Assembly (NCBI RefSeq): GCF_003334335.1
Contig: NZ_QOWQ01000066.1
Strand: one strand, 5' to 3'
DNA from: Escherichia coli
Lineage (GTDB): Bacteria > Pseudomonadota > Gammaproteobacteria > Enterobacterales > Enterobacteriaceae
Length of the DNA: 9,411 nucleotides
A program made the translations under genes and the position numbers. Each line of letters opens with the position of its first letter. The first letter of the stretch is position 1. Positions 1,262-1,661 of the stretch are shown piece after piece. Under the pieces are notes generated by a model. That model was not told the DNA's origin. It saw only the letters and a program-made list of their open reading frames with translations, and did no database searches.

Positions 1262-1460
1262 GGTTAAATCTCCGTATGGTTCATACGGAATAGCCACGTC
1301 GTAAAAAATGCGCAGAGTCCCTGAAGTGACCTCCGGCAGGACACTGTCTCAGGCACTCTGTGATAACCCGAACGGTCGTCTCCGGACTGACGGTTGAATT
1401 TTCAGCGTTGTTTTTTTAATGTAAAAAATCGGTTACGGGTAAGGCTGTGAGGAGGGAGTG

Positions 1461-1661
1461 ATGGTGATACGCAAAAAGAAGTGCAGGGACTGTGGAAACG
1501 CGATTACTCATAATACAGTGTGTTGCCCGTATTGTGGTTCTGTCGACCCCTTCGGCTACTACCGGAATACAGACCGTATCGTTACCATACTGCTGGCGCT
1601 GATTATTGTGGTCCTGCTGACTACTGTCAGCGTCAGTGTGTGTATACTGTGTAGCTGGTGA
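1461..1661 (+). CDS. Small zinc-ribbon membrane protein, 66 aa (CxxC ... CxxC followed by one hydrophobic helix)
   Basis: ATG at 1461 preceded by strong SD GGAGG (1451..1455, 5-nt spacing). N-terminal CRDCGN ... CCPYCGS ribbon motif; C-terminal IVTILLALIIVVLLTTVSVSV is a predicted transmembrane helix. Upstream sigma70-like elements TTGAAT (1394..1399) and TAATGT about 17 bp downstream. Divergent from the YagK/YfjJ-like gene. Confidence 0.5.
   Translation: MVIRKKKCRDCGNAITHNTVCCPYCGSVDPFGYYRNTDRIVTILLALIIVVLLTTVSVSVCILCSW

Follow-up and report, generated by a model that had tools for sequence, protein, structure and literature searches.

The island and its genes

The window, by which we mean the whole stretch of Escherichia coli DNA that was analysed (9,411 nucleotides), is identical to E. 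coli B7A beside the fec operon and is the backbone of an SRL-PAI / CP4-44-like island, the gene order in the SRL island of Shigella flexneri matching that of the window. The assignments of gene order rest on RefSeq annotation, on NCBIfam, Rfam and PHROG searches and on the comparison of pseudogenes, and give the following features along the window.

61..438, minus strand: DUF7828/Zn_ribbon_11 gene (annotation)
692..1261, minus strand: gene of the inovirus Gp2 / YagK-YfjJ family (annotation; PHROG 25019, E 1.9e-40)
1262..1460, no strand: probable divergent control region of 199 bp between the Gp2-like gene and the small ORF (scan, repeats, alignment A3)
1450-1455, plus strand: Shine-Dalgarno AGGAGG, 5 nt before the ATG (sequence)
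1461..1661, plus strand: small ORF, CDS of 66 aa with the stop codon included, MVIRKKKCRDCGNAITHNTVCCPYCGSVDPFGYYRNTDRIVTILLALIIVVLLTTVSVSVCILCSW (ORF list, RefSeq WP_001297219.1)
1482..1535, plus strand: predicted zinc-ribbon knuckles C8xxC11...C22xxC25 (invariant columns, AF2 strands, sub-threshold Pfam hits)
1545..1577, plus strand: juxtamembrane motif D-P-F-G-Y-Y-R-N-T-D-R, residues 29-39 (alignments A1, A2 and A6)
1578..1658, plus strand: predicted hydrophobic tail anchor (residues 40-66) that leaves next to no tail on the periplasmic side (hydropathy, AF2 helix)
~2016-2140, minus strand: frameshifted Hha/YmoA pseudogene, convergent with the small ORF
2478-2739, minus strand: decayed 88-aa ORF with an internal stop and a frameshift, equivalent to WP_000840364.1 in the island variant L004
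2880..3086, plus strand: AlpA
After AlpA: gene for a 200-aa hypothetical protein (plus strand), YfjI/DUF3987 (minus strand) and a YeeP-like GTPase (plus strand)
7808-8044, plus strand: IS102 / IsrC RNA (Rfam RF00124, 67.8 bits, E 6e-10)
After the IsrC/IS102 RNA: Ag43, the last gene in the island order

The small ORF has a fixed position, in which it points away from the inovirus-Gp2/YfjJ-like gene and towards the Hha gene. In the window copy the small ORF is intact and the adjacent Hha and 88-aa genes are pseudogenes, the remnants of which partly explain the non-coding look of the 1.2-kb stretch that separates the small ORF from alpA; the Hha/YmoA gene is intact in other copies of the island, namely L004 (5561-5737), L005 and L012.

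The genes around the small ORF have some features of their own. One or two paralogous DUF7828/Zn_ribbon_11 genes always follow the Gp2-like gene (61-438 on the minus strand in the window, 7310-8133 in the locus L001), and the Gp2-like module encodes three different zinc-ribbon proteins, with no PADLOC or NCBIfam match. Further along the island the IsrC RNA lies just upstream of the Ag43 gene, the same placement as that of isrC before flu in K-12.

A conserved small coding gene

According to the ORF list the small ORF spans from GTG 1458 or ATG 1461 to the stop codon at 1659-1661 on the plus strand, and RefSeq takes ATG 1461 as the start, giving the 66-aa protein WP_001297219.1 of strain B7A; the alternative in-frame starts are GTG 1458 and GTG 1464. 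In the island variants L003 and L004 the ATG is replaced by ATC, so that translation there has to begin at the following GTG. The purine-rich GGAG core of the ribosome-binding site is kept in all island variants, and in the predicted fold of the 5' region, which is unremarkable (z = -1.9), the Shine-Dalgarno is unpaired.

The window was compared with variants of the island from E. coli (L002-L006) and Salmonella (L012), the DNA of which is 76-88% identical. The small ORF is found in the same place in all of these, between the Gp2-like gene and Hha, and its frame is conserved in L002, L003, L006 and the Salmonella variant L012. In the ribbon half of the gene (codons 1-39) dN/dS is 0.11-0.32 in ten out of ten pairs, with Fisher p values of 4e-6 to 1.4e-2; between the window and L003, for example, 8.0 of 24.7 synonymous and 4.0 of 92.3 non-synonymous sites differ (p = 4e-4). 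Such a codon-periodic pattern cannot be produced by constraint at the level of the DNA. Some copies have decayed, that of L004 being frameshifted, that of L005 being without Cys25 (CCPGYVS) and those of L003 and L004 having ATC for ATG, and thus the gene is dispensable in at least some islands.

The small ORF is a genuine conserved coding gene that is already in the databases as a hypothetical protein. An earlier note on this DNA had described a 66-aa ORF with a consensus-like Shine-Dalgarno and had taken it for a real gene, and these claims are borne out: the ORF is present in the ORF list and in RefSeq, its frame is conserved in related islands together with codon-periodic substitutions, which goes against the refuting condition that the note had named (a frame not kept in related islands), and AGGAGG lies 5 nt from the ATG. 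The remark of the same note that such proteins are often missed in annotation is wrong for this gene, since PGAP calls it in thousands of genomes. In the ORF table that was published for the Shigella SRL island it is skipped, orf39 (YfjJ-like) being followed directly by orf40 (Hha-like) (PMC6980539).

The exact protein sequence occurs on at least 1000 contigs and is labelled "hypothetical protein" in almost all records, the other labels being "zinc-ribbon domain-containing protein" and "predicted nucleic acid-binding Zn ribbon protein". Searches of the literature by accession, peptide string, neighbour names and Pfam names returned nothing on the small protein.

The predicted zinc ribbon and membrane anchor

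The first 39 residues have a net charge of +4 and contain a four-Cys ribbon followed by DPFGYYRNTDR, and across alleles the net charge of this N-terminal part is +2 to +4. C8, C11, C22 and C25 do not vary among the intact family members or the distant relatives (alignments A2, A4, A5 and A6), nor do H17-N18-T19 and C21 within the island family, and the DPFG..R part of the juxtamembrane motif is common to the distant relatives. The cysteine pattern is that of a zinc ribbon, with two CxxC knuckles and a short spacer that are conserved across homologues.

None of the curated zinc-ribbon profiles gives a significant match to the small protein; the best Pfam hit is zf-ChsH2 with an i-E of 0.014, other Pfam hits are at 0.02 or above, the rubrerythrin-like domain of NCBIfam scores 16.6 bits against a cut-off of 32, and in all of Pfam, NCBIfam and PADLOC there is no model above threshold. 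A first AF2 run with a shallow family alignment left the ribbon unmodelled; with a wider alignment ribbon strands are predicted at residues 5-7 and 14-16 with moderate confidence (pLDDT 70-78). A Foldseek search against the PDB gave non-significant local matches only, every one of them a zinc ribbon, which include reverse gyrase, Trf, Nop10, ribosomal L32/L33/L40e and ChsH2, and a sequence search of the PDB likewise gave non-significant generic zinc-ribbon matches only.

Residues 40-66 reach a mean Kyte-Doolittle hydropathy of 2.99 over 19 aa, and of 20,000 random 66-codon sequences with the composition of the window only 6 reach a hydropathy of 2.5. AlphaFold2 predicts a helix at residues 33-65 (pLDDT ~92). 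In all alleles there is a single hydrophobic segment, of hydropathy 2.8-3.0, in the last ~30 residues, as is characteristic of a tail anchor. Both the N-terminal CxxC...CxxC and the C-terminal transmembrane helix that the earlier note had read from the translation are therefore upheld, the one by the invariance of C8xxC11 and C22xxC25 in intact members and distant relatives and the other by the hydropathy and the predicted helix. From the predicted topology the N-terminal domain should be cytoplasmic.

The helix is nearly replaced between alleles (IVTILLALIIVVLLTTVSVSVCILCSW vs LLCLLTLLLVLILVSVSGVSVFVLLQ) and its 19-aa hydropathy is still 2.8-3.0, with a dN/dS of 0.5-2.3 for the membrane half between island variants. 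When the helix of the window was mutated at random to the observed divergence (35/75 nt) a stop codon arose in 42% of trials, and only 0.16% of the stop-free simulated helices still had a hydropathy of 2.8 or more. Two alleles, present on at least 1000 contigs each, are the most frequent; they end in ...VSVCILCSW and in ...VSQCVYTV (protein P0104) and differ over the last 6-7 codons. The second ending is the same DNA (window 1641-1661) read in another frame, from which it follows that a small indel at the 3' end is tolerated at high frequency and that the extreme C-terminus is dispensable.

Judged from these substitution patterns, selection keeps the ribbon and the juxtamembrane motif unchanged in nearly every residue and asks of the tail only that it be hydrophobic, in a gene that can be lost. 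With these features the small ORF very probably encodes a real, translated protein, a zinc ribbon with a tail anchor.

The probable divergent control region

The region between the start codons of the Gp2-like gene and the small ORF contains a number of conserved repeats as well as candidate promoter elements.

1271-1289: 8-nt hairpin (inverted repeat) abutting the Gp2 ribosome-binding site
1301 and 1421: direct repeat GTAAAAAAT, the copies being 120 nt apart
1313-1324 / 1349-1360: 12-nt inverted repeat
1394-1399, plus strand: candidate -35 TTGAAT, put forward in the earlier note
1412-1428: palindrome TTTTTTA-ATG-TAAAAAA
1425->1398, minus strand: candidate promoter TTTACA-16-GAAAAT (consensus scan)

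Among island variants this region has a divergence of 0.015-0.18 per site, less than is seen at the synonymous sites of the Gp2-like gene (0.12-0.35) or of the small ORF (0.33-1.4). That 1262-1460 is more conserved than the flanking synonymous sites is good evidence for a functional control region, and it is probably an operator/promoter region.

The strong expression signals claimed for the small ORF hold for the Shine-Dalgarno only, the proposed -35/-10 promoter being weak and not above chance. The consensus promoter scan has no plus-strand site within 1200-3000, TTGAAT at 1394-1399 pairs only with poor -10 candidates, either TAATGT at 17 nt (7/12 matches) or TTTAAT at 15 nt, and in the island variant L002 there is a 4-nt deletion in the spacer that follows it (alignment A3). 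On the minus strand the same scan has 2 sites with 1.7 expected, a count that equals chance, and in general the promoter and terminator scans gave nothing above chance. An Rfam search of the whole window found no family at the small-ORF locus and there is no conserved antisense promoter at the small ORF; the sole minus-strand promoter-like site inside it, 1630->1602, sits in the non-conserved part.

The two divergent genes do not lie side by side in every copy of the island, as in L005 an IS66-family element splits the Gp2-like gene from the small ORF (2399-4814 and 5022-5219). It may be that the L005 copy, which has lost Cys25, has been decaying since it was cut off from the shared control region.

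Distribution and relatives on other mobile elements

The DNA of the small ORF is found in 3,493-3,535 of 5,426 complete E. coli genomes (approximately two thirds), at 6,417-6,884 places with 1-6 per genome, nearly all of them chromosomal. In the same complete genomes the Gp2-like gene is found at 6,501 places in 3,526 genomes and the AlpA module at 6,512 places in 3,507 genomes, and because its distribution is the same as theirs the small ORF is to be seen as a fixed part of the backbone. The thousands of identical copies reflect recent spread and not selection. A homologue was looked for in the K-12 islands CP4-57, CP4-6, CP4-44 and KpLE2 and none was found; a phage collection gave a single 20-residue edge match only and IMG/VR gave 2 loci only. 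Eight records in a plasmid collection match the ribbon half (residues 1-39), the transmembrane part having been masked by the low-complexity filter, and several of these are megabase-sized replicons filed as plasmids.

When a family profile was scored against 1.84 billion representative proteins the family proper proved to be narrow, with 25 representatives at E <= 1e-10, for the most part fragmentary or frameshifted proteins of E. coli, Shigella, Salmonella and Klebsiella. Weaker hits, at E 1e-5 to 1e-3, make up a wider group of 58-82-aa proteins with the same layout, in which the motif C-x-D-C-G-x-x-L-S-x-x-A-x-x-C-x-x-C-x-S-x-D-P-F-G-x-x-R is followed by basic residues and then a transmembrane segment (here ZnR-DPFG-TM). 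Aligning A2 with A6 by hhalign gives a probability of 98.9% and an E of 3.8e-17 over 53 columns, a score that is partly circular because the members of the wider group (A6) had been chosen among the hits of the A2 profile.

These relatives share with the island protein their length class, a largely co-linear ribbon, motif and start of the transmembrane segment, and their presence on mobile DNA, whereas they are only 25-40% identical to it, have different neighbours and in most cases have a tail of 10-25 residues after the helix that the island protein is without. No name or described function is attached to any of them. Those for which the surroundings were read are as follows.

L014, 832-1062: relative beside an HTH gene (HTH_92)
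L015, 5001-5237: relative beside PLDc_2, ParA and DotM (DotM_C)
L017, 3532-3759: relative beside an SNF2 helicase and AcaB (setting L017-L019)
L025, 3998-4219, and L026, 3986-4219, plus strand: IncF ZnR-DPFG-TM ORF of 72-77 aa

The relatives in L014, L015 and L017 are lone, divergently oriented small genes that have no neighbour in common. The IncF ORF (L025, L026) is read in the opposite direction to the tra operon; on one side it has traN and on the other a 126-aa ORF located upstream of trbC, and some records leave it without annotation. With the relative P0139 as query, tblastn gave matches in 120 plasmids, of which 116 are conjugative, the position of the ORF having been read in two IncF records. 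A 67-aa protein of an E. coli plasmid, P0162, which is encoded near Ail/FaeA/virK-like genes, was not counted as a member of the family as it is without the DPFG motif.

Possible function of the small protein

The mechanism that we favour is that of a C-tail-anchored inner-membrane protein, of which residues 40-66 would form one membrane helix running to the C-terminus. The ribbon would face the cytoplasm, as anticipated from the positive-inside rule and from the reducing compartment that a Cys4 zinc site requires, and the end of the helix would lie at the periplasmic face. The helix would then be a mere anchor and the ribbon the working part, binding a cytoplasmic protein or nucleic acid and thereby holding its partner at the membrane, whether by recruitment or by sequestration. 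A partner-binding ribbon is the most economical mechanism because the conserved surface would be cytoplasmic and the anchor is exchangeable; selection on the ribbon together with an exchangeable helix argues against a peptide that forms pores or acts by contact between transmembrane segments and for a cytoplasmic binding function. Candidate partners from the island module would be the Gp2-like protein, the two DUF7828/Zn_ribbon_11 proteins and AlpA, and a conserved host factor is an equally likely partner because the relatives on unrelated mobile elements share no neighbour. Expression would be from the strongly conserved divergent control region that is shared with the Gp2-like operon. Taken as a whole the proposal of a cytoplasmic ribbon that tethers a partner at the membrane is a tentative one, to which we would give somewhat less than an even chance.

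The small protein might instead be a membrane-active effector, such as a small toxin or an abortive-infection or exclusion factor by which the membrane is damaged or blocked, with the ribbon as a trigger or oligomerisation module, which we consider unlikely. Its small size, its one very hydrophobic helix and the presence of the family on mobile elements, including conjugative IncF plasmids, are what would be expected of such a protein, islands of the same type carry other toxin systems such as CbtA/CbeA, and in PHROGs there are hits, all of them weak, to phage protein families of unknown function in which an N-terminal ribbon and a transmembrane segment are laid out in the same way. However, the sequence of the helix is variable, a major allele has a frameshift that alters the final residues, and the constraint sits on the part predicted to be cytoplasmic. 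Nor is there a cognate antitoxin gene alongside the small ORF, an Rfam RNA or a conserved antisense promoter, the site at 1630->1602 lying in the variable part and being one of a number expected by chance, and up to 6 copies are carried per genome without a conserved partner gene. PADLOC-DB 2.0 likewise has no match at E <= 0.01 for the small protein, for the Gp2-like protein or for its zinc-ribbon neighbours. Of the roles offered in the earlier note, which were toxin, phage-exclusion factor and regulator of membrane complexes, neither toxin nor exclusion is shown by any of these results.

Many characterised small bacterial membrane proteins act by helix contact, as does MgrB on PhoQ. The single-pass architecture of the small protein is that of this class, for which modulation of a membrane protein by contact between helices in the bilayer is the commonest known mode of action (PMC12648545), and a membrane protein of the host or the island could be modulated in this way; such recognition should conserve one face of the helix, yet the helix is the least conserved part, with dN/dS up to 2.3, there is no periplasmic tail and the conserved surface would be cytoplasmic, which makes this explanation distinctly improbable. 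We think it just as doubtful that the gene is a hitchhiking or decaying ORF without present function, kept by the recent spread of the island or by overlapping regulatory DNA. The thousands of near-identical copies, several of them decayed, and the high conservation of the adjacent DNA itself are in keeping with such a history, as is the searched literature, which holds no experimental evidence of expression, but substitutions in the ribbon half fall preferentially on synonymous sites, the helix has stayed hydrophobic where random mutation would be expected to make it less so, and homologues of the same architecture are found at 25-40% identity on other elements.

A wider reading builds on the tethering mechanism, namely that the ZnR-DPFG-TM proteins are an unrecognised family carried by different mobile elements of enterobacteria (Ag43/SRL-type islands, IncF tra regions, and Dot/Icm- and AcaB-type elements), the ribbon of which captures a conserved factor, of the host or of a rival element, at the inner membrane, with a role in element conflict or control. 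This is a speculative reading with a low probability; if it were true that role may be, for example, exclusion, anti-defence, or control of the replication or excision of the island.

Comparison with known systems

C-tail-anchored inner-membrane proteins are known from E. coli and Salmonella in ElaB/YqjD/YgaM, Flk and DjlC, where the anchor localises a cytoplasmic binding activity. Like the small protein they have a cytoplasmic N-terminal domain and a single transmembrane segment at the extreme C-terminus, whereas they are larger and are without a zinc ribbon, and kinship in sequence is not expected.

The generic zinc ribbons PF13240 (Zn_Ribbon_1/zinc_ribbon_2), PF13248 (Zn_ribbon_3), PF10571 (UPF0547), PF12773 (DZR) and PF12172 (zf-ChsH2) resemble the small protein in their two CxxC knuckles approximately 10 residues apart, the second of which is C-P-x-C-G, but these Pfam models are without the continuation into DPFG, basic residues and a transmembrane segment that is seen in the small protein, and no defined function is assigned to any of the families. 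On the distant relative P0161 there is a weak hit to Zn_Ribbon_1 (PF13240), which the precomputed list gives for both P0161 and P0169.

The type I toxin peptides Hok, TisB, Ldr and Ibs are under the control of overlapping antisense RNAs, depend on the sequence of their helix and are without a folded cytoplasmic domain. These peptides, which are reviewed in PMC12648545, are like the small protein in that they are small, have one hydrophobic helix and are often found on prophages and plasmids, whereas none of these three traits (antisense control, dependence on helix sequence, want of a folded cytoplasmic domain) applies to it. A type I toxin was rejected on these grounds, there being no antisense partner by Rfam or by promoter scan and the helix not being conserved. 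A ZAS anti-sigma factor was also rejected, as the spacing of H17-x3-C21 / C22-x2-C25 does not fit H-x3-C-x2-C, zf-HC2 is not among the Pfam hits, and there is no sigma factor gene beside the ORF in any locus.

Significance

The small protein is a well-supported and otherwise ordinary hypothetical protein, of the class of zinc-ribbon small membrane proteins. What is of note is its abundance in E. coli, where about two in three complete genomes have the gene, often in multiple copies, and the carriage of its relatives by other mobile elements, those of F-like plasmids lying in the transfer region. In a 2025 review of bacterial small membrane proteins the word zinc is absent (PMC12648545). If the ribbon does tether a defined partner to the membrane, this would be a new mode of action in the biology of small membrane proteins, and it would provide a handle on the poorly understood Gp2/YfjJ-AlpA-YfjI backbone of these islands.
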